Translations under genes and position numbers: made by a program | Origin: a virus | Length of the DNA: 50,613 nucleotides | Strand: one strand, 5' to 3' | IMG/VR virus record: IMGVR_UViG_3300045993_000450 | Notes under the pieces: model-generated | Databases searched by the model: none | The model's input: the letters and a program-made list of their open reading frames with translations, nothing else | What the model was told of the DNA's origin: nothing | Shown: piece by piece, positions 5,870 to 49,567 of the stretch | Position numbering within the stretch: position 1 is the first letter of the stretch | Layout: each line of letters opens with the position of its first letter

Positions 5870-6414
5870 TGGCCTTAATCGCTACCCCCGGCGGAACGAC
5901 CTCTAACAGTTACTGTACGGTCGCTGAGGCTAGCAATTACTTTGGAAATAGTGTAGGCAAAACACTATGGGAAACAACTGAATTTCAAGACGTGTCTCTA
6001 ATAGAGGCTACACGTTTATTAGATACTCTAGTGACCTGGAACGGTTATATTGCCTCTGAGTCACAACGTCTACGTTGGCCTAGAATGTGGGTTCCAAAAC
6101 CTGATGTCTATCCATACGTAAGCGCTACTACAGACGTGGGTGTCGGAGGCCCGTATCTTCCCAACGACGTAATCCCAGAACCCATCAAAGACATTGTCTG
6201 CGAATTGGCTTACAGTCTTATTTCCACTGGGGGTTTCCAAATGGAGGAAAACCCAGTGACATTGGTTCGTGTAGGAACGTTGCAAGTCAGATTCGCAGAG
6301 AAAGTCAAAAGTTACGGTTTACCCCTTATGGTTAGAAGTATGATTGCTCCTTGGGGATCCTACTCTCTAGAGTCTAGTAATGATGTTAGACAAGTCGGGG
6401 TGGTAAGAGTATGA
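5869..6414 (+). CDS. Head-tail connector/adaptor (gp6/SPP1 gp15-like)
   Basis: 181 aa. NSYCTVAEASNYF...W......EATRLLDTL..W.G......Q.LRWPR pattern is typical of head-tail adaptor proteins (from memory). Gene order supports it. Confidence 0.6.
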   Translation: MALIATPGGTTSNSYCTVAEASNYFGNSVGKTLWETTEFQDVSLIEATRLLDTLVTWNGYIASESQRLRWPRMWVPKPDVYPYVSATTDVGVGGPYLPNDVIPEPIKDIVCELAYSLISTGGFQMEENPVTLVRVGTLQVRFAEKVKSYGLPLMVRSMIAPWGSYSLESSNDVRQVGVVRV

Positions 6415-6773
6415 ACTTAGCCACGATCGTAAGTAATTCTATAGGCAAGGCCCGTATGGCTATGGGTTCGCTCATAACTACTGCCACCTTGTTGAAGAGC
6501 ACGACTAAGACTTACGATGTTTTGACAGGTAAGAAAACACAGACGACCACGTCCGTTAAAGTGGACGTGGTCGTAGATTCGTTTAATGTCAGTGAACTCA
6601 ACACTAACGTATTGTATTCAGACTTAAAAGTGACAGTCTTCAAGGATCCAACGTTCGAAATGACTCTGGACGACAAAATGACTATCGGAACGATCACTTA
6701 TGCCATTCTAAAGATAACCCCGTCGTATGTAGGTAATGATGTATTAGTTTATACAGTCCAATTGCGCAGGTAG
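6411..6773 (+). CDS. Hypothetical head-tail joining protein
   Basis: 120 aa with a 4-nt overlap on the upstream gene. Assigned by position only. Confidence 0.45.
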   Translation: MNLATIVSNSIGKARMAMGSLITTATLLKSTTKTYDVLTGKKTQTTTSVKVDVVVDSFNVSELNTNVLYSDLKVTVFKDPTFEMTLDDKMTIGTITYAILKITPSYVGNDVLVYTVQLRR

Positions 6774-6872
6774 CGCTCTGGATTGCGCTCTGATCAGTTC
6801 AAAACTAACATACCAATAGCAGTACCAAGGCCTAACAATTTAAACTTAAACCAGAGCGGACCTCAGAGCGCA
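6772..6872 (+). repeat. E element copy E1 (two GCGCTCTG repeats ... CCAATAGCAGTACCAAGGC core ... two CAGAGCG repeats)
   Basis: AGCGCTCTGGATTGCGCTCTGATCAGTT is identical over 28 nt to 26493..26520. Inverted arms flank a conserved core. It ends 2 nt before ATG 6875. Confidence 0.9.
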
Positions 6873-18883: not shown

Positions 18884-18938
18884 CCAGATCATGGGTCCTT
18901 GATTATAAACTTAACAGGGATCCCTATTAGTTTATAAT
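18884..18938 (+). promoter_or_regulatory. S-type promoter candidate (ATCATGGGTCC, GATTATAAA, TATAAT 18933..18938)
   Basis: The core ends 35 nt upstream of a perfect TATAAT. It lies in the 96-bp gap before the fibre gene block. Confidence 0.5.
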
Positions 18939-18978: not shown

Positions 18979-19446
18979 ATGGCTACAGGCGATATCAAGT
19001 GGTTCCAGCAAGCTATTCTGGACCTAGGAAACAAGATTCATAATCTAAGTAGCGACGTATTGCAGTTGGGTATCGTTACATCAGCGACGGTACCTACAAT
19101 GGCTACCGCGGCACCTCATTGGGGTGGTACAGGTACTACTAACTTCGCCACTAACCAGGTAGGTACTGGCGGGGGTTATACGGGGCCTATTAACCTTGCA
19201 GGTGTGAGTTGGACCAATGTATCTGGCGTTTTAACCTTGCGCGCAACAGATCCAGTTATTCCGCAAAATGCCGCGGGTTTTGCCAACGGTGCTTACGGAA
19301 TTATCTTTAATAGTACGGACACGAGTAAACGAGCCATCGGTTATATCGAGTTAAGTTCAGCTGGTACCGTCTCTATCGTGTCTGGTAGTGTAACAGTAGA
19401 TTTTCAAGGCGCAGGTACCGACGTACTTCGTATTACTCCAGCTTAA
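18979..19446 (+). CDS. Hypothetical structural protein
   Basis: 155 aa. RBS AAGGGG. First gene after the S-type signal, upstream of the fibre-like gene. Confidence 0.5.
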   Translation: MATGDIKWFQQAILDLGNKIHNLSSDVLQLGIVTSATVPTMATAAPHWGGTGTTNFATNQVGTGGGYTGPINLAGVSWTNVSGVLTLRATDPVIPQNAAGFANGAYGIIFNSTDTSKRAIGYIELSSAGTVSIVSGSVTVDFQGAGTDVLRITPA

Positions 19447-25831: not shown

Positions 25832-26424
25832 TGGATTTTGATTGGAAGAAAACGCTACCCTTTATTGGTGCTCTTGCCACTGGTGGGGTTCCGGCATTAG
25901 TAGCTGCGGCGGCAGGTGCACTGGGCGACGCACTCGGTACGCCTGTTGATCCAACGCAGTCAGGTATCGACACGGCCATGAAGAATGCCACGCCTGAGCA
26001 AATGGCTGCACTCAAACAGATTGACGCCGACCTCAAGACAAAGATGCGGGCGTTTGACGTGCAGGAAAAACAGATTGATGCCGCTACCGAGCAAGCCTAC
26101 ATTACTGACGTTGACTCTGCCCGGCACGCCCACGCGCAGAACATGGGAGTGCTACGGCTTGGGTATTTCATCAATGCTGCGTCATATGTCTGCATATTCG
26201 CGGTACTGTATGGCTGCTTCACAGTGCTGTCTAACGCTGGGAAGATCACTATTGACCCGGGCATTGCGGCGATGATCGGTGGAGTGCTTGGTGCTGTAGT
26301 GCAGTGGCTGATCTCCAACTCGTCCCAAGCTAATGGCTTTTTCTTTGGATCTAGCCCTGGCTCACGCGACCTGTCTGCAAAACTAGGTAATGCAGTGGGT
26401 ACCGCTATCTCTTCTAACAAGTGA
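25828..26424 (+). CDS. Holin-like membrane protein (3-TM, GTA-type holin resemblance)
   Basis: 198 aa. An N-terminal and two C-terminal hydrophobic segments with a central DVDSARHAH region. Last gene of the + strand block. The family assignment is from memory. Confidence 0.45.
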   Translation: MMDFDWKKTLPFIGALATGGVPALVAAAAGALGDALGTPVDPTQSGIDTAMKNATPEQMAALKQIDADLKTKMRAFDVQEKQIDAATEQAYITDVDSARHAHAQNMGVLRLGYFINAASYVCIFAVLYGCFTVLSNAGKITIDPGIAAMIGGVLGAVVQWLISNSSQANGFFFGSSPGSRDLSAKLGNAVGTAISSNK

Positions 26425-26491
26425 GGCTATATGGCTTGCAAAAAGAAATCTGGTAAGAAACCACCTAAAAAGTAGTCTCAACTGTTAAAAG

Positions 26492-26594
26492 TAGCGCTCT
26501 GGATTGCGCTCTGATCAGTTAGTAAAGTAGCTACCAATAGCAATACCAAGGCTAGCATTTTATAAACTGATCCAGAGCGCAAGGTCAGAGCGCT
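26492..26594 (+). repeat. E element copy E2, at the convergence of the + and - strand gene blocks
   Basis: Arms AGCGCTCTGGATTGCGCTCTGATCAGTT / AACTGATCCAGAGCGCAAGGTCAGAGCGCT are near-perfect inverted repeats. The core is GCTACCAATAGCAATACCAAGGCTA. The element overlaps the stop codon of 26593..27120. Confidence 0.9.
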
Positions 26595-27120
26595 ATTTGA
26601 GGTTCAGAGCGTAAACTCTGTTAATCTCCTTCAAGACTCCCATCTGATACATAGCATCGTCTAAAGCGTTGTGATGGGTGCCAATACGGGGCACTGAAAC
26701 CTTAAACAGGTTCTTCATTGTCCTGAAACAGCTGTTCTTGTAGTACCTCCATGGCAAGGGTTCTTTTATAGCCTTGTAGGCGTTGGCCATCAAGACATTA
26801 TCAAAGTCTGCGCCATTGCCCCAAATACCTACTGGGTCGTGTTCTTTGATCCAAGCTGCAAACAAGTGCAGTGATGTCTTCAAGTCATGTCCCTTGGTCT
26901 TAAATATCTCACGAGCCTGTTCACTCTGCTGCAACCACCACACGACTGTTTCCGGTGTCATAGCCAAACCTGCATCGACGCAACTACGAGCATCGACCGT
27001 TGTGTACCAGGTCTCATGGAAATCTGGTTTCTCAAAGTCAAAAACCACCGCGCCGATCGCCACGATGACCGCATTAGCATCTGTGCCAAGGGTCTCTAAA
27101 TCCATCATCACGTGTTTCAT
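26593..27120 (-). CDS. 3'-5' exonuclease (DEDDh/DnaQ-like)
   Basis: 175 aa. MMDLETLG (DxE), WGNGADFD and HHNALDDAMYQ motifs. Confidence 0.8.
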   Translation of the reverse strand: MKHVMMDLETLGTDANAVIVAIGAVVFDFEKPDFHETWYTTVDARSCVDAGLAMTPETVVWWLQQSEQAREIFKTKGHDLKTSLHLFAAWIKEHDPVGIWGNGADFDNVLMANAYKAIKEPLPWRYYKNSCFRTMKNLFKVSVPRIGTHHNALDDAMYQMGVLKEINRVYALNLK

Positions 27121-28190
27121 AAGTCCTCATCTCTCCAGCACTTAGCGCTGGCATGAAAGGGCAAGCCCTCGATTGTTAATTCACTGTATTCCACAGTTAG
27201 CATGCGACCAATGTATTCCACTTTGTTCACCAGAGCGTCCCGTTTTTCTGCGTGGCTACCTGGAGCCGACGTGCGAAATATCTTGCCATTTTCTGCAAGG
27301 CATACGCAAATCCCCCAACCGTCTGCGCTAGGTTCCACATCGATGCACTTGAATTCAGCATCGTGAAAGTGTTTGACCTTCAACAACCCTGAACTGCGTT
27401 TACCGACCTCATATCCTCTGTTGTCTAGCCTCAACATGAGACCTTCGAACCCTGCACTTCGCACTTTGTTCATTTGGTCGTACATCAAAGGTGAACTGAC
27501 ATAGGGGTTATATGGAAGCACTAGTGTCTTGCCAAATACTTGAGTCTCGACGTCTTTAAGGATACCTGACAGTTCCTTATGTCTATCAACGTAGTCGTCC
27601 ATAGCTATGATGTCATAACACACAAAGCTTAACTTCGCTGTGTTAGGTTGCTTAGCCTTAATCCATGAAGCCAAGGTTTGTAATGGCACACCGTGACAGT
27701 AGAGTTCCCCATCAAGTGTATCGCCCTCAGGCAATCTATGTTTCAAGGCATCTAAAACGTGAGTGATGCTGGTTATGGGCTTACCTTGGCGGGAGTACGC
27801 AATGATCTCACCATCTTGTCTGGTGATGAGACATCTGTGGCCGTTGAGCTTCTTCTGTAGCACGGCTCCTTTGTAGTTCACCTGCTTAACCTTGTCGATG
27901 GACTGGGCCAACATAGGTCTTGCCAAACCCATCTGGTTAGAGCCACTGACTTCGGCTTCAGCAACAGTGTCTTTATAACCTTTATCCCTCATCCTGGAGA
28001 TGCGAGAGTTGATTCTGGAGTTGATCTGCTGTGCAAGAGAGCGACCGGCTAACCCAGCAGGTACTAACTCTTTGTGGAAAACTTCAGAGCCACCAATCGT
28101 CGTTGCATGAGCAATGAGAATAATCGACCCTTCGTTCCATATCCTCCAGGTACCCACGCTGTTAGCATGCATACGATAAAGGTATTTCAT
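27117..28190 (-). CDS. lig: ATP-dependent DNA ligase
   Basis: 357 aa. Motif I KLNGHR, motif IV FEGLMLR, motif V LLKVK. Confidence 0.85.
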   Translation of the reverse strand: MKYLYRMHANSVGTWRIWNEGSIILIAHATTIGGSEVFHKELVPAGLAGRSLAQQINSRINSRISRMRDKGYKDTVAEAEVSGSNQMGLARPMLAQSIDKVKQVNYKGAVLQKKLNGHRCLITRQDGEIIAYSRQGKPITSITHVLDALKHRLPEGDTLDGELYCHGVPLQTLASWIKAKQPNTAKLSFVCYDIIAMDDYVDRHKELSGILKDVETQVFGKTLVLPYNPYVSSPLMYDQMNKVRSAGFEGLMLRLDNRGYEVGKRSSGLLKVKHFHDAEFKCIDVEPSADGWGICVCLAENGKIFRTSAPGSHAEKRDALVNKVEYIGRMLTVEYSELTIEGLPFHASAKCWRDEDL

Positions 28191-28474
28191 TGCACCCGCT
28201 CCATAAGAGCGATGTACCCTGCCGTATCTACCATCGAGTCATGGTGCGTCGGGTTATGTAACAACCTAGCCTGCTTAACAGAGACCATCATCTGGCACAC
28301 ATCGTCGGTAGTGATCTCGCCGTTGAAGTTGTATTTGTGCTTAAGATGCACTGTCCAGTAATCAGCGATAGCTCGCAGATTGCGACCAGGGTCACCATAT
28401 GTTTCTTCACGATCACCGTAAATAACAGACTCAGCCTCTTGCAAGAGGTTATCGAACGCCTTTTTGATAGCCAT
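28187..28474 (-). CDS. Conserved phage protein of unknown function
   Basis: 95 aa. GDREETYGDPGRNLRAIADYW pattern is common in phage nucleotide-metabolism neighbourhoods (from memory). 4-nt overlap with the ligase gene. Confidence 0.5.
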   Translation of the reverse strand: MAIKKAFDNLLQEAESVIYGDREETYGDPGRNLRAIADYWTVHLKHKYNFNGEITTDDVCQMMVSVKQARLLHNPTHHDSMVDTAGYIALMERVQ

Positions 28475-28498
28475 ATAAATTCCTTCTGTGATGAATAA

Positions 28499-28580
28499 TG
28501 CTCTGATCAGTCTTATTTTTAAGTACGTATGCTAATACGTTTTTAACTTTCAGAGCGTTTCAGAGCGCGATGGGAGCGCT
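28499..28580 (-). repeat. E element copy E3 (subtype II, no CCAATAGCA core)
   Basis: TGCTCTGATCAG ... TTCAGAGCGTTTCAGAGCGCGATGGGAGCGCT. Internal ACGTAT-GCTA-ATACGT palindrome. Closest in layout to 41763..41852. Confidence 0.7.
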
Positions 28581-28584
28581 GGAA

Positions 28585-29055
28585 CTACACATTTCTAATT
28601 AACAATAGGCCTAAGTTAGAAAACTTAAACCATTCCCTACCTGCACGGGTCCAGAGCTCTTTTGCCTCTGGGTGCGGATATTCTTCAATAAACACTATGC
28701 GTTGGCACGACGTGTTTAGCAATAACTTCGTGCAGGTTATGCACGACGATGCGGTGCAGTATGCCGTATGGATACTCCACACATCACGGCACTGGAGCAA
28801 AGCGTTTTGTTCTGCGTGAATTGCTTCACAGAGATTAAGCCCCTCGCCCGATGGCAGACCAACCCCTGCACAAGGATGTTCCTGGCAGTTAGGTTGCCCA
28901 GAGGCTGGACCATTGTATCCTGTGGCCAAGACATGATTACGCTGATTGGTCAGTATGCAGCCAACCTTACGACGACTACAAGAGGCCCGGCTAGATGCCA
29001 AGACAGCCATAGACATGAAGTAAGTATCGATGTCTGGTCTCATGATACAAGCCAC
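28585..29055 (-). CDS. dCMP deaminase
   Basis: 156 aa. HAEQNAL zinc/catalytic motif and a SSCITCTKLL (CxxC) motif. Confidence 0.9.
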   Translation of the reverse strand: MACIMRPDIDTYFMSMAVLASSRASCSRRKVGCILTNQRNHVLATGYNGPASGQPNCQEHPCAGVGLPSGEGLNLCEAIHAEQNALLQCRDVWSIHTAYCTASSCITCTKLLLNTSCQRIVFIEEYPHPEAKELWTRAGREWFKFSNLGLLLIRNV

Positions 29056-29855
29056 TTTCCAAGTTCACCAGTGTTGGACATGTCTTTTCCACGACTAGCT
29101 ATGATTTTCAATGCCTCAATCGAGGTGCAAAACGGCATCTCAACTTCTTCGTACCCATCAGGTCCTGCACGTAAAATATCCGCCACCATCTCGAAGTGAC
29201 GCTCATATATGTGACTAGACATCGCGGTGATAGTCATATTTCCGCAAGCCAAGTAATGGTGTTCGGCTTGCAGGACCCCAAAAACTAGACGATACAGGAA
29301 GGCGAACGTAGGGATGTCGGTACCTAAACCAAAGATCTGGTCGCTAGACCGCATGTGAATAGACATATTCAGTTCGCCATTGCGGATACGAAAACCGACA
29401 CTCTCCGTACACACAGTATCCACCGTTTCCGGCTTCATGTGCTCTTTGCTGAGCATAGGAATCACTGCCCTGCGACTATCTTTGTCCCGTAACAATTCCA
29501 TGACCACAGACCAGAACCCTTGTTGTTCACCGAACCAGAATTGGCCGTAGTTGCTATTGAAGGTCCCATCAGGATTCTGCACTGACTCCCACATCTTCGC
29601 ATGTTGCTTAATGCTTTGGTCATATTTGTTGGCCGTCAACTTCCACAGCATTTCCTTCTTGAAATACTCGAAGTTATATTTACGATCTATGAAGGCCATA
29701 AATGGAAACAGAGGACTGACAGTTAACTGCAAGTCCTCTACTTCTGCGATGGTAAACCCTCTGGGTTTTACCAGGTGACCGTGAGACATTGTCTTGTCAA
29801 ACATCTCCAGGAAAGCCACTCTGTTCTGGTTAGCTAAGAGATCCATTTCTTCCAT
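29040..29855 (-). CDS. ThyA-family pyrimidine nucleotide C5-(hydroxy)methyltransferase, probably dCMP-specific
   Basis: 271 aa. EMLWKL, DSRRAV, catalytic Cys149 (DTVCTES), MRSSDQIFGLGTDIP. These align without gaps to E. coli ThyA QRSCDVFLGLPFNIA, placing Asp180 at the Asn177 position. Confidence 0.8.
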   Translation of the reverse strand: MEEMDLLANQNRVAFLEMFDKTMSHGHLVKPRGFTIAEVEDLQLTVSPLFPFMAFIDRKYNFEYFKKEMLWKLTANKYDQSIKQHAKMWESVQNPDGTFNSNYGQFWFGEQQGFWSVVMELLRDKDSRRAVIPMLSKEHMKPETVDTVCTESVGFRIRNGELNMSIHMRSSDQIFGLGTDIPTFAFLYRLVFGVLQAEHHYLACGNMTITAMSSHIYERHFEMVADILRAGPDGYEEVEMPFCTSIEALKIIASRGKDMSNTGELGKWLVS

Positions 29856-30346
29856 GCTCCTAAGTTGAACGCCATATCCATAGCCCGCTCGATTACAGAC
29901 TCGTCTGGCGTAATGTAATTATACACCAAGTGAGGTGTACTTCTAAACAATTGATCGTAGGACTCGATGTAATTGTGACCATTCAATTTGATGTTGGCCA
30001 AGGCTTCAGCCGTATCGTATGGCTTAACCTCATGACTATCGAGTTTCAATATGACATTTCGTGGTGGGCGACAGTAGATGATCACACAGCATTTTGTGAA
30101 AACCATCCTGTCTAAGTACGACATGTAGGCATGGTCAAATAAACGACCCTTGTAAACCTGTGAGGAAATACATGTGACCCTGTCCATGACGATAGGATTA
30201 CGGCACTCACGTAGTTGGTTGTCCAGGCAATTTTGCTCCTCGCCCCACGTTTTGGGGCGAGGTCCTGGGTGCACTATCTCTAGTCCAAACTTCTTCGCCA
30301 ACGTGGATTTTCCGGAATTATCCATGCCTTCCAGGATGATAGCCAT
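29834..30346 (-). CDS. dNMP (thymidylate-like) kinase
   Basis: 170 aa. P-loop ILEGMDNSGKSTLAKKFG is typical of Tmk-family kinases. Confidence 0.7.
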   Translation of the reverse strand: MAIILEGMDNSGKSTLAKKFGLEIVHPGPRPKTWGEEQNCLDNQLRECRNPIVMDRVTCISSQVYKGRLFDHAYMSYLDRMVFTKCCVIIYCRPPRNVILKLDSHEVKPYDTAEALANIKLNGHNYIESYDQLFRSTPHLVYNYITPDESVIERAMDMAFNLGAWKKWIS

Positions 30347-30738
30347 TATGACTCCAGGATTTCACCAATGCGGTGTTCAGGAGGAACCCAGCCTTCAGGC
30401 TTGATAGCGTCAGCGGCGGAGCCGTCACCACGACTAGCTTTAACACCAAGCTTTTTCTCCATATTGGCTTCATGGACCGCGGTGCAGCAACGGTTGATCT
30501 GGTCAGCTGTCATGCCCAGTTTGTACAGAGCGCCCATGGCGAAGTACTGCAGGTCAATCAAGGCATCGATCTGCCCAATGTAGTCAGCAGCTTGTGAAGC
30601 TTCAATGAATTCATCGACCTCTTCTCTGAGACACTTGACAGTGATCTCAAATTCGGGGAAAGACAGAGGGCATTGAATCCTTGGATGGATTTTGAGGACT
30701 TGTTGATTGAAGTCAATAACCTGGTGAGCGAAAGTCAT
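30346..30738 (-). CDS. MazG/HisE-like nucleoside triphosphate pyrophosphohydrolase
   Basis: 130 aa. LREEVDEFIEA ... DALIDLQYF acidic helices of all-alpha NTP pyrophosphatases. Its start shares a base with the kinase stop. Confidence 0.7.
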   Translation of the reverse strand: MTFAHQVIDFNQQVLKIHPRIQCPLSFPEFEITVKCLREEVDEFIEASQAADYIGQIDALIDLQYFAMGALYKLGMTADQINRCCTAVHEANMEKKLGVKASRGDGSAADAIKPEGWVPPEHRIGEILES

Positions 30739-30739
30739 T

Positions 30740-32362
30740 TTAGTTCCTTATGATGAAAGTACGAAAGTCTCTGCCTGGAGCCACAGCCCTCTGCTTAGTG
30801 TGAGTACCCTTGATTTGAGATTCACCCAAAACAATAGGCACGCCGTGGAAGTTGTAACTCGTATTGATCAGTGGACCGAACGCGTTCACAAGAGCTAATA
30901 AATGTGGATCGTCCGTGATTTGCGGTCTGCATGTATGCACTCGCAAATCTGGATAATAATGTGCACCGCCAAACAGGTCACTTTCTTTGCCTGGTCTGAA
31001 ATCGCGGGTACAGATCATATATCCCAATGACTTATGGATCTTGCTTACATCGATAAACAAATCTACGGCCTGCTCTGCACTCATGACGAGTGCGAAGGGC
31101 ATCTCATTAGTGCGGTCATTAATCTCATTGATGGTCTCACCAATAGATGAGTAAGGCAAAGCCAATGTGGTGGTATTACATAAAGCACGAGGGCCGAATT
31201 CCATCGCACCTCGCACGATATTAACAAAACCGATCTCACTCAGTTCGTCGACTATAGGACCCATGGCGGTATCCAGGTCTTCAAACGAAACCATCTGTAT
31301 ATCGTCACATGCGAAGTTCAAATCACGATGCCCCCAGAACAAGTGTTCAGGCCACTCAAGATCACCGAAGTATCGCTGATAAACACCAAGCCCGCAACCT
31401 TGATCACCCGCTAACGGCATGATACAAGTCTTTTCAGGTGTGAGTTTTGCCAAGATACTGTTTAACTTCACATTGTAGAACAGGCCGCCCACTAACAACA
31501 GGTTCGTGGGCGCAAAGTTATGGAAAATAGTAACCATCACTTCCTCAACCACATGTTGTACAAAGTAAGAGATGATGCAGCGCTTGTCGTGAACTGATGC
31601 CCCGCTGGCGTCCATTTCAATGAGGACTCTCTGCAACAAGACATCTATACGGGCTTGCGTCTCTGTCAGTGCAGTGGCCATCAATAATGGGTCTGTCTCT
31701 TTATCGATCTTGCTGTGGAAGATATTGTCGACCCATACCTTTGCTGTATCAAGGACGATACTGTTCAGTTTAAGGACATTATACCCCAGTTTATGCAGGT
31801 GCACCTCGTAGGCCAACATCTTGTATTCATGGTTGTGCATCTTCATGCCCAAGAATGCTGTGGCATATTGATATAATAGGCCTAATGATTTTTCAAATCC
31901 GAACCAGCGGTTAAGCAGTCTATAACTACCTCGATGAACTTCATAAACAGAGATGCACTCGCCTGACGAGCCGAACCCGTCGGCCACAATGGCGGTATAT
32001 GTGTTGGCGAAATCGTCCCCCGCAAAAACCACGGCTGATTCGAGGTGACTGTCGTGATGACTGAATTCACGATCAAGTGAGAGTACTTCACAATGTGGCA
32101 TCAGTTTGACCAGAAAATCAGGATCCCAGTACTTATTAGGCTTAGGAAGATCATGATCCAGAAACCAATGACCGACGCACACGCTCGTGTCAGAAGGCAG
32201 AGGAAATCGTTTATTGATCTCATTGATAGCGTCAGTAGGGAAATGTGAATCGGACTTCACAGTAGAGAATCGCTCTTGTTCGTACCCACAAATGACTTGA
32301 CCGTCAACGATGAGTACTGCAGAGCTATTGTGACCTAGAGTCAGGGCCAATGCTGTTGTCAT
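30740..32362 (-). CDS. Carbamoyltransferase (NodU/CmcH/TobZ family)
   Basis: 540 aa. N-terminal LTLGHNSSAVLIVDGQVICGYEQERF (Kae1/ASKHA-like). C-terminal MEFGPRALCN ... NTSYNFHGVPIV (YrdC-like carbamoyl-adenylate domain). Confidence 0.85.
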   Translation of the reverse strand: MTTALALTLGHNSSAVLIVDGQVICGYEQERFSTVKSDSHFPTDAINEINKRFPLPSDTSVCVGHWFLDHDLPKPNKYWDPDFLVKLMPHCEVLSLDREFSHHDSHLESAVVFAGDDFANTYTAIVADGFGSSGECISVYEVHRGSYRLLNRWFGFEKSLGLLYQYATAFLGMKMHNHEYKMLAYEVHLHKLGYNVLKLNSIVLDTAKVWVDNIFHSKIDKETDPLLMATALTETQARIDVLLQRVLIEMDASGASVHDKRCIISYFVQHVVEEVMVTIFHNFAPTNLLLVGGLFYNVKLNSILAKLTPEKTCIMPLAGDQGCGLGVYQRYFGDLEWPEHLFWGHRDLNFACDDIQMVSFEDLDTAMGPIVDELSEIGFVNIVRGAMEFGPRALCNTTTLALPYSSIGETINEINDRTNEMPFALVMSAEQAVDLFIDVSKIHKSLGYMICTRDFRPGKESDLFGGAHYYPDLRVHTCRPQITDDPHLLALVNAFGPLINTSYNFHGVPIVLGESQIKGTHTKQRAVAPGRDFRTFIIRN

Positions 32363-32377
32363 TTTTATTCCAGTAAT

Positions 32378-32397
32378 GATGGGGCCGAAGCCCCATC
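32378..32397 (-). other. GC-rich hairpin with a UUCG tetraloop (GAUGGGGC-UUCG-GCCCCAUC) directly after the 32405 gene
   Basis: Perfect 8-bp stem. The T-run (GTTTGTTTT) is on the + strand side only. On the - strand it is more likely an mRNA stabiliser or processing site. Confidence 0.5.
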
Positions 32398-32404
32398 GTT
32401 TGTT

Positions 32405-33241
32405 TTACCATTTACCCAGTACGTCGTCCACACCCTTGTTAGAGGTGGATTTTGTGTCAGCAATCGTGGCGTCCACAGTCTGCGTTGCTTCTTTGACAGA
32501 AGGCAAAGCTTTTGGCTTTTCACGAGCATCTTCCAGCAAAGGAGCTGCGGATGCGCTGCCAATGTTCCAGTCACGAGCAATGTTGCGATCAAGAGCAGAC
32601 TTGCCCGTTTTCTCATCCAAGAAGCCGAGCATCTCGAATTCCAACATTGGGAACTCAGAATCTTCCATTGTGATTTGAGTAATCACAGCAGAAATCGGGT
32701 ACCCATTGGTTTTCAATTCACGGCCATACTCAGACACATTCTTCAGAGAAGTAACCGGGATGCCCATAGCAAACACAGTACCGTCGATGTCTTCAGGCAA
32801 GGCCAACCAAACACGTTTGCTGTCACGACAAGCTTTTGATTTCTTGCCAGAACGAGAAGTGGCGGAGCCGAACTGATTCTTAGGACATGTCTGACAACGC
32901 TGCGCTTGTGGGGTGGTCACCCAACCATCAGGCGCAATACCATCAGAACTGGCACACGTAGGCGGAGAACTGTCACCACTGTTGTAAGTACCCTCGTAGA
33001 AGGTCTTGATAAACAAACCAGCGCCGGGCTCCACAGCCAAGATCACTGCATTCAGTTCATCGGACGGTTTACGAATCTCTTCACCCCCTTCCACCAAACG
33101 GAACTTGCGGCCACGCAAAGAGACACGTGGGATGGAGATGCTGCTTGAGGCAAGACTGTCTGCTTCAGCATTCGCACCTTGACTAGCCATGAAGGCCTTC
33201 AGATACTCTGGTATTGCTACCGCCGTAGTTTTATCTGTCAT
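32405..33241 (-). CDS. Hypothetical DNA-metabolism protein with a Cys cluster (possible ssDNA-binding/annealing protein)
   Basis: 278 aa. PPTCASSDG...QRCQTCPKNQFGS...KACRDS cysteines and an acidic-to-basic C-terminal tail. It occupies the SSB/recombinase slot of the replication module. Function not established. Confidence 0.35.
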   Translation of the reverse strand: MTDKTTAVAIPEYLKAFMASQGANAEADSLASSSISIPRVSLRGRKFRLVEGGEEIRKPSDELNAVILAVEPGAGLFIKTFYEGTYNSGDSSPPTCASSDGIAPDGWVTTPQAQRCQTCPKNQFGSATSRSGKKSKACRDSKRVWLALPEDIDGTVFAMGIPVTSLKNVSEYGRELKTNGYPISAVITQITMEDSEFPMLEFEMLGFLDEKTGKSALDRNIARDWNIGSASAAPLLEDAREKPKALPSVKEATQTVDATIADTKSTSNKGVDDVLGKW

Positions 33242-33297
33242 TTCAGATTTCCTTGTTATTAAACCAGGTCAGATTAAGGCTCTGACCAATGCCTATC

Positions 33298-33794: not shown

Positions 33795-35183
33795 TCACAG
33801 GACCGCGAACATATCCAGCACCTCATGCGAGTTACTCTCTTTGTTTTGTACTATGCTTAAAAGTCTCTTTTCAGCCTGGCAACCTATGAGGTGGATTATC
33901 AATTGTTTACGAGTCTGACCAGCCCTGGTTATACGACCATTCGCTTGCACATAGATTTCTCCTGAGGGAACCAGCGAGTGCCATACGATCACGTTCGCTG
34001 CGGTCAAGGTAATACCATGCGCAGACGACTGAGGTTGAATGATAAGAACCTGAAGATCTCCATCCTGGAAATTCTTGATGTGGTTAGCACGAACCTTATG
34101 GTCCACAGACCCATATATACACTCTGCCCTTGCGCCTTTCTTGCGGAAGAACTCCACAAGATGCTCGATGCTGGCCCTGAATGCACAGAACACAACGAGT
34201 TTTGTTTTACCTGTTTCCTCAAAGATTCTCCACAACTCGTCATCTCGTGTGGAGCTGTCAAGCTTATAGGCGTTGCCCTCATCATCTTTCACACTGCCCG
34301 CAGCTATCTGCAGCAACTTCATGACTTTCACTGCCGCATTGACTGCGGTTATCTCACCTGCGGCATACTCAACAAGGAGTTCCTTTTTCATTTTGTCGTA
34401 GACTTCTCTTTGCTCACTTGTGAACTCGACAATAATGTCTTCGTACTGACACGGCGGCAAATCAAGACATTTGTCACGCTCAAACCGTATGGCTGGTTGC
34501 AATACACGATTCACTATGTCCGGCGCATTGGGCTTAGGTAGCCACAAGAACGGTCCTACCTGTTGCTCCACGGAGTCACGGAATGCTGTGTAGTATTTAG
34601 GCAGGAAGGGGTTATTTGGGTTGACCACTTTAGCTTGTCCAAAAGCTTCAGTGGGTCCATTAGGTGTTGGTGCGCCGGTCAATGCATGAACGGCCTTGAC
34701 ATTACGACATATGTTGATCATAGCCTTGCTACGATTAGTCGTGTGCTTCTTGAAGGCAGTCAATTCATCGATGATAATCAAGTCGAACTTGGCTCGTATA
34801 AGGGCCTCCTCCATTATCACCACACCATCATGGTTAATGATAATGAAGTCCGCTTTGCCAGCTATTACGGATTCTCTATATGACTTATTTCCATGCGCGA
34901 TTGCGTACTTTCTGTGCGGGAAGTTTGTGAAGATTTCTCTTCCCCATACGGACTGCATCGTTGACAGCGGACACACTATCAGAATTTTCTTTATCTTGTC
35001 GTTGCACAACAGGAAATCTGCGGCCCATAAGCTTGATAGCGTTTTCCCAGTTCCTAGGTCGGAAAAGTTGAAGGCGCGTAGATTCATCAAAAGAAACTTC
35101 GTCGTCTCTATTTGGTGGGAAAAGGGCTTCTGCCCGATTTTCATTGGCCATTGGTATTGGTCAAGTGGTAGTCGTAGAGTCAT
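33795..35183 (-). CDS. SNF2-family DEAD/H helicase
   Basis: 462 aa. DLGTGKT (motif I), IIIDELTAF (motif II), QANGRITRAGQ (motif VI). Confidence 0.85.
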   Translation of the reverse strand: MTLRLPLDQYQWPMKIGQKPFSHQIETTKFLLMNLRAFNFSDLGTGKTLSSLWAADFLLCNDKIKKILIVCPLSTMQSVWGREIFTNFPHRKYAIAHGNKSYRESVIAGKADFIIINHDGVVIMEEALIRAKFDLIIIDELTAFKKHTTNRSKAMINICRNVKAVHALTGAPTPNGPTEAFGQAKVVNPNNPFLPKYYTAFRDSVEQQVGPFLWLPKPNAPDIVNRVLQPAIRFERDKCLDLPPCQYEDIIVEFTSEQREVYDKMKKELLVEYAAGEITAVNAAVKVMKLLQIAAGSVKDDEGNAYKLDSSTRDDELWRIFEETGKTKLVVFCAFRASIEHLVEFFRKKGARAECIYGSVDHKVRANHIKNFQDGDLQVLIIQPQSSAHGITLTAANVIVWHSLVPSGEIYVQANGRITRAGQTRKQLIIHLIGCQAEKRLLSIVQNKESNSHEVLDMFAVL

Positions 35184-35493
35184 AGTTTATTCTCTCAAAG
35201 ATTTTATTTCGTATTTTGACCATCTTATCCAGGTCTTTACCCGTCACAACAGCTGCTACGCCACCCTGACGGGCTATATGTCTCAAGTGTCTCCATTGGA
35301 GTACCGATGGAGTATTACCTTCGACCTTCGCTTCAATCGCTATAAAGATTCCTTTCCATAAATACAAGTGATCAGGCACCCCGCCATTCCCGAACATGCC
35401 GCCAGGTGGCGAGAAGTACCAGATGTCTTCAAAGTTCTCAGTCATGTACTTCCGTATGAAATCCTTGACCTTACCTTCTGGGGACTGTGCCAT
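35161..35493 (-). CDS. VRR-NUC domain nuclease
   Basis: 110 aa. GVPDHLYLWKGIFIAIEAKVEGNTPSVLQ matches the VRR-NUC PD-(D/E)xK core. Confidence 0.8.
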   Translation of the reverse strand: MAQSPEGKVKDFIRKYMTENFEDIWYFSPPGGMFGNGGVPDHLYLWKGIFIAIEAKVEGNTPSVLQWRHLRHIARQGGVAAVVTGKDLDKMVKIRNKIFERINYDSTTTT

Positions 35494-35504
35494 TATTACC
35501 TCGT

Positions 35505-35614
35505 ACGCTCTGGGCGCTCTGAACTAGCGCTCTGAATTAAGTTATAAAAAGTTAGCCTTAGTATTGCTATTGGTAGCAGTTATTTTAACTGATCAGAGCG
35601 CATACCTGAGCGCT
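35505..35614 (-). repeat. E element copy E4 (inverted orientation relative to E1/E2)
   Basis: By eye, the reverse complement matches E2 at most positions over about 104 nt, including GCTACCAATAGCAATAC(T)AAGGCTA and both GCGCTCTGA arm pairs. Confidence 0.9.
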
Positions 35615-35625
35615 ACTTTTCATCA

Positions 35626-36345: not shown

Positions 36346-36813
36346 TTATTTTACAGGTTGAGTAATTCTTCGTTTCTGGACATATGCCGACCAGCAAGAC
36401 TTACAGTATGAGTTAAGTCCGCCGGACTTCCTTTGTCCAAAGCTAGATGTGGAAATAAGAAGGTTACACATCCTGCAGCGTTTAACTTCGTCATTATCTT
36501 GCTGATTTAGGGCCTTCTCTCTAGACTTTAGATTCTCTGATTGAGTGCATAGCCTCAAATTACTCACGGCATTGTTGGTTTTGACCATGTCTAAATGATC
36601 TACCTGCGTACTGGAGTCAGACAAATCGAGACCTAAAAAGGAGGCGGCCATTAGTCTATGCACATAAAGTGTAGTAGGATATTCTTCGCCTTCTTTATAT
36701 AGTCCTACAGTATCATATCCTCCGTAATTTCCAGGCTTTAGAAATCTTCCTCTAAGTCCCTTTATACGACTAGATTCAAAAATTTCGTATCGCTCATATC
36801 CAGGTATCTTCAC
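36346..36813 (-). CDS. HNH homing endonuclease (NUMOD4/HNH_3-like), second copy
   Basis: 155 aa. MKIPGYERYEI, VDHLDMVKTNNAVSNLRLCTQSEN, C-terminal CRMC...CKSC. 4-nt overlap with the DNA polymerase stop. Confidence 0.85.
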   Translation of the reverse strand: MKIPGYERYEIFESSRIKGLRGRFLKPGNYGGYDTVGLYKEGEEYPTTLYVHRLMAASFLGLDLSDSSTQVDHLDMVKTNNAVSNLRLCTQSENLKSREKALNQQDNDEVKRCRMCNLLISTSSFGQRKSGGLNSYCKSCWSAYVQKRRITQPVK

Positions 36814-41758: not shown

Positions 41759-42116
41759 TGTTGCGCTCCGGAGCGCTCAGAATGCGCTCTGACGCATACT
41801 TTTTAGCGCTTTGATATAAGCCTACGCACTTACTTTTTAGGCTGATCAGAGCTTTTCCCACCCGATAGGGGTACGAGTCTTTCTTCACTGGCCGACGCCC
41901 TTCGTCCCAGGTATTCTCAATCACGTTATCCACTCCCCCGCACTCCACACACTCGCTTTCAAACTCGTGCCTGATAGACAGGATCAGCCAAACAGGGAGC
42001 CAGAAGCCCATGGTGATGATAGACATGATCAAGTGCAACAAGTGAGAGGTGCTTGGCTTCAAGTGCAACGTCCGTCGCCCACAGACTTTGCAATACTCTA
42101 GTTCTACGTCGCTCAT
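41748..42116 (-). CDS. Hypothetical membrane protein with a split CxxC...CxxC zinc ribbon
   Basis: 122 aa. CKVCGRRT, a hydrophobic hairpin (IMSIITMGFWLPVWLILSI), CVECGG. The 3' third of the ORF is encoded by E-type repeat sequence. Confidence 0.5.
   Translation of the reverse strand: MSDVELEYCKVCGRRTLHLKPSTSHLLHLIMSIITMGFWLPVWLILSIRHEFESECVECGGVDNVIENTWDEGRRPVKKDSYPYRVGKALISLKSKCVGLYQSAKKYASERILSAPERNNVR
41763..41852 (+). repeat. E element copy E6 (subtype II), embedded in the 3' end of ORF 41748..42116
   Basis: GCGCTCCGGAGCGCTCAGAATGCGCTCTGA ... GCTGATCAGAGC. Same layout as the reverse complement of 28499..28580. Confidence 0.6.
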
Positions 42117-46450: not shown

Positions 46451-46524
46451 TGCGCTCTGAGTGAGCCACAAAGGATGGGCCTTATAGCTACTATCCACCC
46501 TCAAAAAGAGATGATCAGAGCGCA
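46451..46524 (+). repeat. E element copy E5 (short; TGCGCTCTGA ... GATCAGAGCGCA)
   Basis: 9-bp inverted arms GCGCTCTGA / TCAGAGCGC separated by 55 nt. It ends 3 nt before ATG 46528. Confidence 0.7.
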
Positions 46525-47114: not shown

Positions 47115-47165
47115 AACAACATGCAAGACAATCTTGCATATATCCTTAACAAACCGGAGAAAATC

Positions 47166-47675
47166 ATGAGTGAAGAGCAAGTTGTGGCAGTGGAAAAGAA
47201 AGTGAACCCTAACATCATCAACGGTCGTATGCCCGTGGCGGTGGTTGCGCAAGTTCGCTTCGGTAACAACAAGGGCGACGCCACTAAGGCGTTGGCTGAT
47301 TTGTATGGTACCACTGTAGGTAAGATCGATGACATCAAGAAAAACCGCAATTTCGCGTATGTTGATGCCACGTTCAAACCTACGGCTGCCCAGAAGGAAG
47401 AAGGTGTGGCATGGTTGCAACGTCATCCGAAGTATAGCGAAGGCGTTGTGGACGCGGTGATTACTGAATTGGAAACCACTGCTGAGGCATCGGACGAAGA
47501 AGCAACGGCTTTCGCAGCGATTCGCACCGCAGCTCGTGGTCAACCAACGACCACGAAAGAAGGTGCAGTAGCGGATGCTGGCGGTGGCAACCGTCGTGAA
47601 GCACGCAAGAGCAAGAAAGTCAAAGCCACTGCTGAGGTTGATGCAGGTTCGACGGCCGACGCGCTTCTGGCATAA
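47166..47675 (+). CDS. Hypothetical protein with strong expression signals (start at 47166 preferred over 47121)
   Basis: ATG 47166 is preceded by GGAGAAAATC. ATG 47121 lies only 6 nt after the TATAAT. The C-terminal third is Ala/Gly/Lys-rich. A strong terminator follows. Confidence 0.6.
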   Translation: MSEEQVVAVEKKVNPNIINGRMPVAVVAQVRFGNNKGDATKALADLYGTTVGKIDDIKKNRNFAYVDATFKPTAAQKEEGVAWLQRHPKYSEGVVDAVITELETTAEASDEEATAFAAIRTAARGQPTTTKEGAVADAGGGNRREARKSKKVKATAEVDAGSTADALLA

Positions 47676-48413: not shown

Positions 48414-48454
48414 GGTGGGCTCCTTTTGTTTAACATGAGAAATTCTACAGGAAA

Positions 48455-48569: not shown

Positions 48570-48815
48570 CTAAACGAGTGGCCAGAGGTGCTTGAAAAAA
48601 GCACGTGTCGGCCAATACCCTTGAATTCCAGCGAAGGGCAACGCGAATCGGACAGCGCGGTAAGCTTCTTTGCACGATGCACCTCGGAGCGATTCAGCGT
48701 TAGCCTGGACGATCTTGTTGAATCGAGCTTTGCCTAGGTACGCCACGCATTCTTTGAGCGCTCTGGACTCATTCTCGTGCTTCGAACCATTGAATCTGAC
48801 TTCATAATGTGACAT
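48570..48815 (-). CDS. Hypothetical protein (81 aa)
   Basis: Start at MSHYEVRF..., 1 nt after the upstream stop. The longer ORF-track version overlaps 48817..49023. Confidence 0.5.
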   Translation of the reverse strand: MSHYEVRFNGSKHENESRALKECVAYLGKARFNKIVQANAESLRGASCKEAYRAVRFALPFAGIQGYWPTRAFFKHLWPLV

Positions 48816-49192: not shown

Positions 49193-49567
49193 TTATTCAG
49201 ACTTTGCAGCTGAAGTCATCTCTTTGTAAACTGGCTTGAACGTGAAGCCCTTACGTGCTGAGTAGATTTGCCCGTAAGACAAGCCAAGCAACTCAGCAGC
49301 TTCTTTGTGGCTGGAGCCCTTCAAGTCTCCAATCATCACCCTCCGTGCATCGTCCTCTGTCATGACCTTCTCAGAGGCAGGACCCCGGTTGCGGGAAGGT
49401 GTGACTTTTTGGTTATTGAGAATGATAATCATTTCATTGATTTTCTCACCCAGAACTTTCAGGGACAATTTGTCTTCCAAGTTCAAGGCTGCCAGAGTCT
49501 CAAGGCGGGTGGCAAGAACTTCAAGGGTTGAAGATTCTTGAGCCAGGGTTTCAGTAGTTGCATTCAT
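49193..49567 (-). CDS. Putative HTH DNA-binding protein / transcriptional regulator
   Basis: 124 aa. C-terminal SHKEAAELLGLSYGQIYSARKG looks like a helix-turn-helix, and the N-terminal half is coiled-coil-like. It is the first gene leftward of the repeat-rich region. Confidence 0.5.
   Translation of the reverse strand: MNATTETLAQESSTLEVLATRLETLAALNLEDKLSLKVLGEKINEMIIILNNQKVTPSRNRGPASEKVMTEDDARRVMIGDLKGSSHKEAAELLGLSYGQIYSARKGFTFKPVYKEMTSAAKSE

Follow-up and report, generated by a model that had tools for sequence, protein, structure and literature searches.

Several kinds of short sequence are known to recur between genes, in phages and in bacterial chromosomes. The RNase III sites of phage T7 (R0.3 to R18.5) are about 10 intergenic hairpins per genome, related in sequence, placed between stop codon and ribosome-binding site and all lying along the direction of transcription; each has two ~10-bp helices, an internal loop and a small apical loop. 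In temperate phages, the CIRs bound by the phiC31 repressor and the C1 operators of P1 are single 17-bp sites, dispersed in intergenic DNA and in part close to terminators. REP, BIME and REPIN elements are chromosomal, number hundreds of copies, consist of palindromic units and have a RAYT partner, and the DNA of phage T5 carries site-specific nick sites. In temperate Cluster A mycobacteriophages, stoperators (L5 gp71 type) are single 13-mers, oriented with transcription and bound by a monomeric immunity repressor; they are thought to halt both initiation and elongation of transcription and are conserved across the phage cluster (PMC9283540). In T4-type phages, PeSL cassettes join a strong sigma-70 consensus promoter to a compact terminator stem and flank ORFans in hyperplastic regions (PMC2839356, PMC4122927).

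The DNA analysed here, referred to as the window, is the whole stretch of 50,613 nucleotides, a complete ~50.6 kb siphovirus genome akin to that of Xanthomonas phage Xp15. It holds six intergenic cassettes (E1 to E6) built from 9-bp GCGCTCTGR sites, with the nearly invariant word GCGCTCTGA. Tentatively, and with slightly less than even confidence, we read them as a DNA-site array for a clade-specific phage helix-turn-helix (HTH) protein, which would control transcription at module borders, with a hairpin adding termination at E2. The cassettes and a lone site are the following.

E1, 6772..6872, plus strand: 66-nt type, between the head-closure gene and the tail-completion/Neck1 gene; sites at 6773-6781 (GCGCTCTGG), 6785-6793 (GCGCTCTGA), 6851-6859 (CCAGAGCGG) and 6863-6871 (TCAGAGCGC).
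E2, 26492..26612 including a fifth site, plus strand: 66-nt type, where the late (+) and early/middle (-) operons converge; sites at 26494-26502, 26506-26514, 26572-26580 and 26585-26593, with the fifth, unpaired, at 26604-26612.
E3, 35505..35616, minus strand: 66-nt type, between an exonuclease gene (35626-36336) and a VRR-NUC-like gene (35161-35493); sites, in plus-strand coordinates, at 35505-35513, 35514-35522 and 35527-35535 (the right arm in the minus-strand reading), 35593-35601 and 35605-35613.
E4, 28498..28581, minus strand: 62-nt type, with the dCMP deaminase gene (28585-29055) on one side and a gene for 95 aa (28187-28474) on the other; read on the coding strand, direct sites at 28571-28579 (degenerate), 28560-28568 and 28550-28558, and an inverted site at 28498-28506.
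E5, 41763..41854, minus strand: 62-nt type, the reverse complement of E4; sites at 41763-41771, 41773-41781 and 41784-41792, and an inverted site at 41846-41854.
E6, 46452..46523, plus strand: minimal form with one site per arm, at 46452-46460 and 46515-46523, 63 nt apart.
Lone candidate site, 48758..48766, plus strand: GCGCTCTGG.

The initial annotation had placed three full copies at 6772-6872 (+), 26492-26594 (+) and 35505-35614 (reverse), and E1 to E3 agree with these coordinates. Their layout of arm, spacer, core, box and arm is also as it described: a left arm of GCGCTCTGG, 3 nt and GCGCTCTGA, an interior of 57 nt with TACCAATAGCA and a TTTATAA-like box, and a right arm of CCAGAGCG, 3-4 nt and TCAGAGCGC, the two arms being inverted repeats of each other. 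In each of the three, the inner left and inner right sites start exactly 66 nt apart. A repeat finder pairs the full copies (I1, 107 nt, 83%; D6, 62 nt, 85%), and a covariance model of the 66-nt type gives E1-E3 91-119 bits, scores that are high by construction because these copies stood in the seed alignment. The model does not recover E4 and E5, which have a different arm layout. These two make up the core-less second subtype that had been proposed, which is real (28498-28581 and 41763-41854), and the proposed short form is present as E6 (46452-46523, one site per arm). E4 and E5 are mutually reverse complementary (I3), though both lie within the minus-strand operon, and the 62-63 nt spacing of E4-E6 is that of the Xp15-type subfamily. 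Overall, window sites follow this syntax: direct repeats 10-13 bp apart, and mirrored sets 62-66 bp apart with an AT-rich centre between them. The word is enriched. Allowing up to one mismatch, GCGCTCTGA has 27 matches versus 9.75 ± 2.8 in shuffles (none of 100 shuffles as high); CGCTCTGA occurs exactly 13 times in the window, nearly always in non-coding DNA, against 1.4 expected; and 18 of the 22 CGCTCTGR matches fall in non-coding DNA, which is ~10% of the genome.

The cassettes fit closely between their neighbours. The head-closure gene to the left of E1 (6411-6773) ends in a TAG that forms part of the element's GTAG. To the right, the tail-completion/Neck1 gene has its ATG at 6875, and the last site of E1 supplies the sole Shine-Dalgarno-like GAG. 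As had been noticed, E1 interrupts an otherwise overlapping head-tail gene string, in which neighbouring genes overlap by 4 nt; the Xp15 orthologues of E1's own neighbours overlap, without an element. Of the six, E2 comes closest to a perfect palindrome, with an RNA fold of -60 kcal/mol and a z score of -10.8; AAAAG and TATTTG lie on its flanks. Gene 41552-41758 has its ATG 4 nt beyond the end of E5, with GGAGCGC as its Shine-Dalgarno sequence; since ORF 41748-42116 reads through the cassette, E5 may be partly coding. E6, with an orthologous copy in the relative L073, ends 4 nt ahead of the ATG at 46528 and so abuts a downstream start as well, although the earlier statement had excepted it. 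Of the isolated half-sites reported at the outset, 26604-26612 is genuine (the fifth site of E2, overlapping the 3' end of the exonuclease gene and kept in relatives) and a third corresponds to the lone GCGCTCTGG match at 48758-48766, but 33276-33285 contains only GCTCTGA within a small local hairpin (GGTCAGA...TCTGACC) and is probably unrelated to the cassettes.

A megablast search of GenBank phages with the element region gave no match, and relatives were obtained via protein search instead. The GCGCTCTGR word and its site syntax are also found in Xp15, in the Acinetobacter phages Effie and HHU4 (22-23 copies of the word each) and in dozens of metagenomic relatives, with cassettes frequently at the same gene junctions as in the window. 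An identical word occurs in phages of 38% GC (Acinetobacter), 47% GC and 52% GC (Xanthomonas), and CGCTCTG is unchanged in all 19 diverged 66-nt-type copies compared. Orthologous copies of E1-E3 are 83-94% identical versus about 60-75% for the flanking genes, and the interior of E1 is conserved at ~94% in a copy-specific manner. The cassettes are kept at orthologous junctions by purifying selection, as a check proposed by the initial annotation had asked of related phages. Its companion check, for copies in host genomes, came back empty: when 185,579 bacterial and archaeal genomes were scanned with a two-arm pattern, just 5 matches emerged, in high-GC actinobacterial and Collinsella coding DNA, all judged chance. 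In the more distant phage ZCSE2, CGCTCTGA occurs once versus 1.2 expected, and the covariance model has no match. A resemblance of the word to the Neisseria uptake sequence (DUS, GCCGTCTGAA) was considered and set aside, the word being common to phages of unrelated hosts and the two-arm element not occurring in the bacterial genomes scanned.

Across these phages, one to three sites form direct repeats spaced by roughly one helical turn, neighbouring sites of the same orientation being 11-13 bp apart in 58 cases. Mirrored sets lie 56-66 bp apart around an AT-rich, partly palindromic centre, with 57 and 62-66 bp as the spacings tallied, and some sites overlap as palindromes TCAGAGCGCTCTGA. Additional sites without a partner are frequent, and arm counts are unequal (3+1 in E4 and five orthologues, 2+3 in E3, 2+2+1 in E2), so that some sites have no pairing partner. 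At the convergent junction, the Xp15 copy sits between two facing canonical terminators, and the copy of L009 comes after one; transcription of these copies is improbable, and an RNA role is therefore unlikely for them. The head/tail junction is filled in the window, Effie and others and empty in Xp15, and Effie carries tandem duplicates of the cassette. E1-E3 have one common core and their Xp15 orthologues another, which suggests copy-to-copy conversion. The homology of relatives begins exactly at the left edge of E2, upstream of which the genes are unrelated, and this edge is therefore a recombination breakpoint. In relatives of a 65-nt type, the inner right site TTCAGAGCG occupies the -35 position of a conserved TAGCTATATAAAACAACAACTTAGGA unit comprising -10, leader and Shine-Dalgarno sequence, a unit that matches the window's own promoter at 47087-47114.

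Two window genes encode candidate binding proteins.

p124, 49193..49567, minus strand: N-terminal coiled coil and C-terminal HTH.
p184, 47121..47675, plus strand: XRE/Cro-like HTH, helical domain and GGGNRR basic tail.

The HTH of p124 is of the HTH_23 / sigma-70 region 4 type, with a recognition helix, LSYGQIYSARKG, invariant in 29 aligned homologues; the HTH motif of p184, GTTVGKIDDIKKNRNF, is invariant as well. Among GenBank phages p124 is present only in Xp15, Effie, HHU4 and MD-2021a, and the distribution of p184 is identical; tblastn found neither in GenBank phages outside this clade, ZCSE2 included, and both were found in every subfamily sampled. Their homologues are gp02 and gp82 in Xp15 and the products of genes 50 and 20 in Effie, and in all there are roughly 700 homologues of p124 and 400 of p184. 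The promoter upstream of p184 (47087-47114) is the sole TGTACA-N16-TATAAT of the window. PDB sequence and fold searches with both proteins returned non-significant HTH-type matches only (structure E of at least 0.14). Covariation between helix and half-site is uninformative, because both are invariant in every relative obtained.

From these observations we infer a protein reader, its identity as p124 or p184, DNA rather than RNA as its target, and an effect on transcription. The 9-bp sites would be read by sequence, most likely as double-stranded DNA, and an occupied array would form a nucleoprotein complex of roughly 100 bp where gene modules meet (head/tail, late/early convergence, nucleotide metabolism, replication, early genes). 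Acting as roadblock, insulator or operator, such a complex would decide whether RNA polymerase passes or starts. Where an outer site overlaps the ribosome-binding site, translation of the next gene might also be affected. The mirrored layout brings hairpin potential, strengthened at E2, which is probably a bidirectional terminator as well, and the conserved arms double as homology patches for module exchange.

The constancy of CGCTCTG across hosts and GC content suggests that the word is recognised by its sequence and not by shape. The site syntax matches that of binding arrays, arms have unequal numbers of sites, some of them partnerless, and two clade-limited HTH proteins with invariant helices co-occur with the word; together with its constancy, these features agree with the operator half-sites suggested by the initial annotation. 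The binding-site reading is also favoured by positions kept at orthologous junctions with E1-E3 above their flanks, by the link of a site to a promoter in the sister subfamily, by the lack of strand asymmetry and by the copies that are unlikely to be transcribed. However, p124 and p184 fit equally well, many other clade-specific genes would co-occur likewise, and their structural matches are non-significant. An HTH usually reads 4-6 bp, which makes 8-9 invariant positions in each site a long stretch; the mirrored spacings of 56, 61-66 and 72-73 bp share no common helical phase; a mere spacer does not account for the high copy-specific conservation of the interior; and a regulator site has no obvious logic in the middle of the late operon (E1) or at a silent convergent junction. 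The alternative that transcribed cassettes fold into a hairpin, serving as RNase III-type processing site, terminator or attenuator, and/or mask of the ribosome-binding site, seems to us possible but rather unlikely; a sequence-specific RNA-binding factor would then explain the invariant word. The folding foreseen by the initial annotation is borne out, since every copy forms two stacked 9-bp helices (~21-22 bp with a small internal loop) and the fold energy of E2-type copies is -45 to -60 kcal/mol (z from -7 to -11). Base pairing also explains more simply than protein symmetry the compensatory changes at two interior pairs (covariation 0.117 versus 0.095 shuffled, 1 of 500 shuffles) and the gains of complementarity at E2, where independent lineages have strengthened different parts of the stem at different positions. 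Of 18 elements in Effie and HHU4, 13 are complementary at the base outside the word, with 11 additional pairs in two orthologous copies. Elements are packed tightly from stop codon to start codon; in E5 and in orthologues of E1, the outer right site is also the Shine-Dalgarno sequence, GGAGCGC lying 4-7 nt from the ATG. Against the hairpin, the 8-bp core lacks covariation despite large divergence, extra sites have no partner, and the arms show no strand asymmetry, G-U not being favoured over A-C (52 versus 37 cells). A- and T-runs flank E2-type copies (the partial T-runs are TATTTG on one side and, on the opposite strand, CTTTTA) and a U-rich run follows the stem in many 65-nt-type copies, but most copies lack a U-tract, and terminator scans did not find the compact G+C stem, 3-8 nt loop and U-tract of an intrinsic terminator at the cassettes, whose loops are 48-57 nt; they report only small sub-hairpins (35597-35614 and 41782-41797). 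E1-E3 reach the ~20-bp helix of a T7-type RNase III site (9+9 bp plus partly paired spacers), but the stems of E4-E6 and of Effie-type copies have only 8-13 bp, not enough for RNase III. Canonical terminators stand on either side of the Xp15 copy, and Rfam has no family at or above the gathering threshold in the window.

Other explanations stay at the level of DNA. The cassettes might be cruciform or loop starts of replication or recombination (for instance substrates of the adjacent VRR-NUC nuclease), T5-type nick sites, or genome-organising sites, with module exchange as a by-product. The copies are long quasi-palindromes with an AT-rich centre, the Xp15 copy is at a transcriptionally shielded spot, the E2 edge is a breakpoint, the cores suggest conversion, and a VRR-NUC-like gene accompanies E3-type copies (directly downstream in the window, one gene further in Xp15 and Effie). 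Nonetheless, it would be unusual to find six to twelve origin-like sites in 50 kb, and the close association with start codons and ribosome-binding sites, with the promoter of the 65-nt subfamily, points to gene expression; we hold such roles unlikely. Less probable still is a specific version, in which four-site palindromic arrays are architectural sites and not transcription signals, clamped by the invariant coiled-coil HTH protein into a tight loop or extruded cruciform that would mark module borders, seed recombination-dependent replication or VRR-NUC cutting and so drive module exchange throughout a widespread clade of environmental siphoviruses. The initial annotation's proposal that the core (TAGCAA-17-TATAAA) is a regulated internal promoter, here of the sigma-70 type, with operators on both sides is in our view quite improbable. 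E2 and E3 do have hexamers 17 nt apart (TATAAA, TATAAC), the core faces the downstream gene in E1, E3 and orthologues, and the predicted transcript would start at the inner right site. Yet a sigma-70 scan does not report the core, its -35 fits at three of six positions, and an overall match of 8/12 is attained in E2 only, below the at least 9/12 that, along with 16-18 nt spacing, A2/T6 and conservation in orthologues, marks a sigma-70 promoter. E1 has TTAAAC and diverged members TTGAAC, TGAAAC or TTAAAA, without the key A2 and T6; the -10 is not kept in L007, L013, L035, L045, L064 and L069; E4-E6 have no core; the E2 version would run antisense into the convergent exonuclease gene; and there is a weak indication that the Effie core is flipped at the orthologous junction. 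By eye, the core also holds no convincing IHF consensus. A selfish mobile element of MITE or REPIN type, also suggested at the outset, is the least credible explanation and already largely refuted. Terminal inverted repeats, a length of ~100 bp, GTAG at the 5' (left) edge of many copies, presence or absence at the head/tail junction, tandem duplicates in Effie and the core common to E1-E3 would suit it. Against it stand the lack of bacterial copies beyond chance, flanks of E1-E3 without direct repeats and hence no target-site duplication, no transposase or RAYT among the ORFs scanned against PHROGs or Pfam (a scan that passed over some small ORFs), and copies at orthologous junctions, under purifying selection, in phages whose proteins are only 30-70% identical.

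The cassettes thus point to an undescribed phage-encoded control system at module borders, not to junk or a jumping element. The system is unannotated in any of these genomes and absent from Rfam; a literature search on Xp15 or Alachuavirus repeats found no description of the element, and a full-text search for the word retrieved unrelated primer sequences only. Should the cassettes be an array for an HTH protein, a whole clade, namely Xp15 (genus Alachuavirus), Acinetobacter phages such as Effie and HHU4, and several hundred relatives from sludge and fresh-water metagenomes, would run its gene programme via one 9-bp word and a dedicated small HTH protein. This would offer a handle for annotating module borders, a compact and portable site-plus-protein pair for synthetic control, and a concrete case of the old 'linker sequence' idea in modular phage evolution, because the homology of relatives begins exactly at a cassette edge. 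Direct testing is possible, since Xp15 and Effie are cultured phages, with Xanthomonas campestris pv. pelargonii and Acinetobacter calcoaceticus ATCC 23055 as their respective hosts.

Each of the known systems shares part of this design. REP, BIME and REPIN elements resemble the cassettes as ~100-bp mirrored doublets with long intergenic hairpins and GTAG at many 5' edges, whereas the units here are direct repeats and not palindromes, with no chromosomal copies and no HUH/RAYT match. The phiC31 CIRs and P1 operators likewise involve one phage regulator and many dispersed intergenic sites, but lack the mirrored arrangement of four sites and the conserved interior. With the RNase III sites of T7 the cassettes share intergenic position, two helices with an internal loop, mutual relatedness and placement from stop codon to ribosome-binding site; unlike them, they have an apical part of 48-57 nt and a word invariant without covariation, and there are copies with additional unpaired sites or with a position outside transcription units. 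PeSLs, too, are cassettes scattered between genes that unite a stem-loop and expression signals, mark module borders and offer homology patches for exchange, and in the 65-nt subfamily of relatives a sigma-70-like -10, leader and Shine-Dalgarno sequence come after the stem. Window copies differ in lacking a consensus promoter, in their 57-nt interior and invariant, protein-like recognition word, and in lying between core genes; given the promoter-like -10 and leader of the 65-nt relatives, the resemblance is therefore functional only. Compared with stoperators, the cassettes use 9-mers in direct and mirrored sets with 56-66 bp spacing, their orientation does not follow transcription (mirrored sets; E4 and E5 inverted in one operon), and the window genes scanned include no integrase or immunity module. 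Both, however, place a near-invariant short word in many short intergenic spaces across a whole clade, with an HTH protein as candidate reader here, and the many dispersed copies of one asymmetric word that typify stoperators are what the window contains.

The three copies described as complete in the initial annotation proved genuine: E1, E2 and E3 have a common layout, with a left arm of GCGCTCTGG, 3 nt and GCGCTCTGA, an AT-rich interior of 57 nt that includes TACCAATAGCA, and a right arm of CCAGAGCG, 3-4 nt and TCAGAGCGC. Together with three variants, E4 being the reverse complement of E5, they make up the six intergenic cassettes of the window, built from near-invariant GCGCTCTGR sites (hereafter the word) and typed by the distance between inner sites.

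6772-6872: E1, 66-nt type
26492-26594: E2, 66-nt type, with a fifth site extending to 26612
35505-35616, reverse: E3, 66-nt type
28498-28581: E4, variant that differs in its interior, has 62-nt spacing and carries three direct sites and one inverted
41763-41854: E5, variant that differs in its interior, has 62-nt spacing and carries three direct sites and one inverted
46452-46523: E6, variant with a single site in each arm, 63 nt apart

With at most one mismatch, the word occurs 27 times in the window against 9.75 in shuffles; for CGCTCTGA the count is 13 where 1.4 are expected. Of the 22 matches to CGCTCTGR, 18 lie within the non-coding ~10% of the genome. A further half-site claimed at 33276 is just GCTCTGA within a small local hairpin, probably unrelated. 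Since an ORF of 122 aa (41748-42116, - strand) reads through E5, its final ~34 codons are cassette; either E5 is partly coding or the ORF ends there by chance. The cassette of Xp15 that is equivalent to E5 overlaps with the annotated gp53 start. A perfect 14-bp inverted repeat (ACGACCACGTCCGT TAAA GTGGACGTGGTCGT, 6543-6574) lies in the head-closure gene, ~200 nt upstream of E1, and a tiny ORF (26432-26476) at the late operon's end, just before E2, encodes a very basic 14-residue peptide, MACKKKSGKKPPKK. Near E3 are genes for a 110-aa VRR-NUC-like nuclease (35161-35493; weak match, PDB 4qbn) and a free-standing HNH endonuclease (36346-36813); in HHU4 (L082, 18035-18550) the cassette orthologous to E3 has an HNH gene immediately upstream.

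The window looks like a complete siphovirus genome of ~50.6 kb. Structural and lysis genes are on the + strand as far as ~26.4 kb; those for replication and nucleotide metabolism are read on the - strand between 45.3 and 26.6 kb, and beyond them comes a short rightward block of small genes. The window's ends are identical over 104 nt (1-104 = 50510-50613) within 20-nt tandem units GATGAGTGCGAAGTATTTGG (1-144 and 50470-50613), which reflects either a direct terminal repeat or a complete genome wrapped around during assembly. Megablast against GenBank phages gave no close relative; by large terminase the nearest is Xanthomonas phage Xp15 (72% aa), syntenic in gene order, followed by Acinetobacter phages Effie, HHU4 and MD-2021a (~62%). 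A gene cluster conserved in Xp15 and Effie (28585-33241, - strand) comprises a dCMP deaminase, a ThyA-like enzyme, a thymidylate-kinase-like protein, a hydrolase-like 130-aa protein, a 540-aa Nol/NodU-like carbamoyltransferase and a conserved 278-aa unknown, a gene content suggesting that the phage DNA carries a modified pyrimidine.

The element belongs to a family found well beyond the window genome. A two-site pattern scan of viral contigs found it in full at ~22 loci, and a two-arm pattern added 27 metagenome loci. Similar cassettes containing the word are found in Xp15 at 26214-26325, 29500-29608, 37270-37379, 45337-45424 and elsewhere. Effie and HHU4 (38% GC) have a simpler form, (C/G)CGCTCTGA, 48 nt, TCAGAGCG(G/C), at about ten per genome and often in tandem pairs; in these genomes few 8-9-mers are as over-represented as the word (22-23 copies, where 0.7 are expected). 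The family divides by spacing into a 56-nt Effie type, a 62-64-nt Xp15 type that includes E4-E6, a 65-nt type, and a 66-nt type with E1-E3. A covariance model, a step proposed in the initial annotation, was built from 66-nt-type copies only; it recovered the elements of Xp15, Effie and HHU4 and gave no hit in Salmonella phage ZCSE2, which stands for the next clade in the terminase comparison and has one CGCTCTGA against 1.2 expected.

Cassettes also recur at matching places. At the head-closure/Neck1 junction a cassette is present in the window, L017/L029, L035, L007, L045, L032/L038 (related contigs), Effie and HHU4; Xp15, in which these genes overlap, has none there. The late/early convergent junction carries one in every phage compared. 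In different phages, cassettes adjoin the dCMP deaminase gene at matching junctions and lie upstream of the VRR-NUC/helicase block. E1 is ~94% identical to L017/L029, against ~70-74% for the flanking genes, and E2 83-88% identical to its orthologues, against ~60-70% downstream; upstream the flank is unrelated, so E2 homology starts exactly at the element. E3 reaches 85% against flanks of 65-70% in two relatives, and 74% and 65%, close to their flanks, in two others. In E4 the sites alone are conserved and the interior drifts at a flank-like rate. These comparisons indicate that cassette positions are orthologous and their sequence under selection.

How the cassettes act is less direct. A host MITE, one proposal of the initial annotation, is rejected: across 185,579 bacterial and archaeal genomes the two-arm pattern had just five matches, each in high-GC actinobacterial or Collinsella coding DNA without element features, and there were no target-site duplications and no transposase among the ORFs scanned. 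A plain promoter or terminator fails likewise, as sigma-70 and terminator scans left the cassettes unflagged and the suggested TAGCAA-17-TATAAA hexamers are lost in diverged members, the E2 version moreover firing antisense. Canonical signals occur separately in these phages. Ordinary terminators are found elsewhere; the Xp15 convergent-junction cassette is flanked by two facing canonical terminators and in L009 one precedes the cassette, so these copies should be little transcribed. The clade's promoter flavour has TGTACA for TTGACA at -35 (TGTACA, 16-17 nt, TAnnnT), often in CTTGTACAC; TGTACA-17-TAnnnT is present in Xp15 and Effie, and once in the window, before the p184 gene.

34968-35094 and 48800-48913, Xp15 (L047): TGTACA-type promoters
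35303-35502 and 41757-41833, Effie (L081): TGTACA-type promoters
47087-47114, window: TGTACA-type promoter

In the early divergent promoter region of the window, TAATAAAAACAACAACTTA (45541-45570, - strand) matches the conserved TATATAAAACAACAACTTAGGA located after cassettes in 65-nt-type relatives; the motif (L018, L027, L028, L056, L079 etc.) is probably a clade-wide promoter -10 and leader. The late region's best sigma-70 consensus match (TTAACA, 16 nt, TATAAT; 18911-18938) sits in the gap before gene 18979-19446, within the tail-gene block.

The RNA hairpin of the initial annotation is a less likely reading that has evidence of its own. Two stacked 9-bp helices form in the predicted fold of each copy; stability is exceptional in the E2 type, with separate lineages having strengthened separate stem parts; compensatory changes occur at two interior pairs (covariation 0.117 against 0.095, reached by 1/500 shuffles); long additional stems occur in some copies of Effie and HHU4; and the outer right site often supplies the Shine-Dalgarno sequence. 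Against base pairing as the mode of action, the 8-bp core never varies and therefore shows no covariation in stems, unequal site numbers between arms leave some sites without a partner, and there is no preference for G-U over A-C (52 against 37 cells). Direct neighbours lie 11-13 bp apart and mirrored sets 57 or 62-66 bp apart, overlapping palindromes TCAGAGCGCTCTGA are also present, and copies of the 65-nt type have their inner right site where the -35 would fall relative to a conserved block of -10, leader and Shine-Dalgarno sequence. Invariant core, partnerless sites, spacing, lack of G-U preference and this -35 placement argue for a DNA site read by sequence. We read the array as recognised as DNA, the mirrored design adding hairpin activity as a second property where useful, above all at E2.

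Two small proteins conserved in the window, Xp15 and Effie are candidate readers.

49193-49567, - strand: p124, predicted coiled-coil N-terminus and C-terminal helix-turn-helix (HTH)
47121-47675, + strand: p184, XRE-like HTH (invariant GTTVGKIDDIKKNRNF) and GGGNRR basic tail

Among GenBank phages, tblastn finds both only in Xp15, Effie, HHU4 and MD-2021a; both also occur in L027, a 65-nt-type phage, and p184 in L073. The p124 HTH is confidently predicted (pLDDT >90), its recognition helix LSYGQIYSARKG and the RxRGP ahead of it are invariant, and the family matches HTH_23 (19/27 members) and Sigma70_r4_2 (18/27), mostly below Pfam's thresholds. Fold searches with both proteins gave non-significant matches only, nearly all to HTH DNA-binding domains. 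Their link to the word is one of co-occurrence, suggestive and short of proof. The window and Xp15 have different repeat arrays beside the p124 gene but the same p124 helix and the same word. In the window the arrays form a dense block (49950-50340) of two 29-nt TATATAAGCGTGTAACTTATAT, at least five copies of the 19-nt unit ATGTGACTAATCAGTATAT and three 40-58-nt units, each containing an inverted repeat; the block resembles an origin or packaging region, and the Xp15 arrays in the same place are unrelated in sequence. An ~85-nt repeat, …TGCTGAAAAATAAAT.GTAACAA…TCAGCGCAAAAG…TCGTATATA…, has one copy on each side of the p124 gene (~48450-48545 and ~49740-49835) and does not belong to the GCGCTCTGA family.

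Overall, the cassette is a real, conserved and previously undescribed phage regulatory element with an inferred mechanism; no Rfam family covers it, and no paper on it emerged from our literature search. Its analogue at the RNA level is the T7 RNase III site, from which it differs in lacking covariation and a small loop. In function it comes closest to the operator/stoperator arrays found in Cluster A mycobacteriophages (PMC9283540), although the element has no orientation rule or known repressor, and, although it has no consensus promoter, to the PeSL cassettes of T4-type phages (PMC2839356, PMC4122927).
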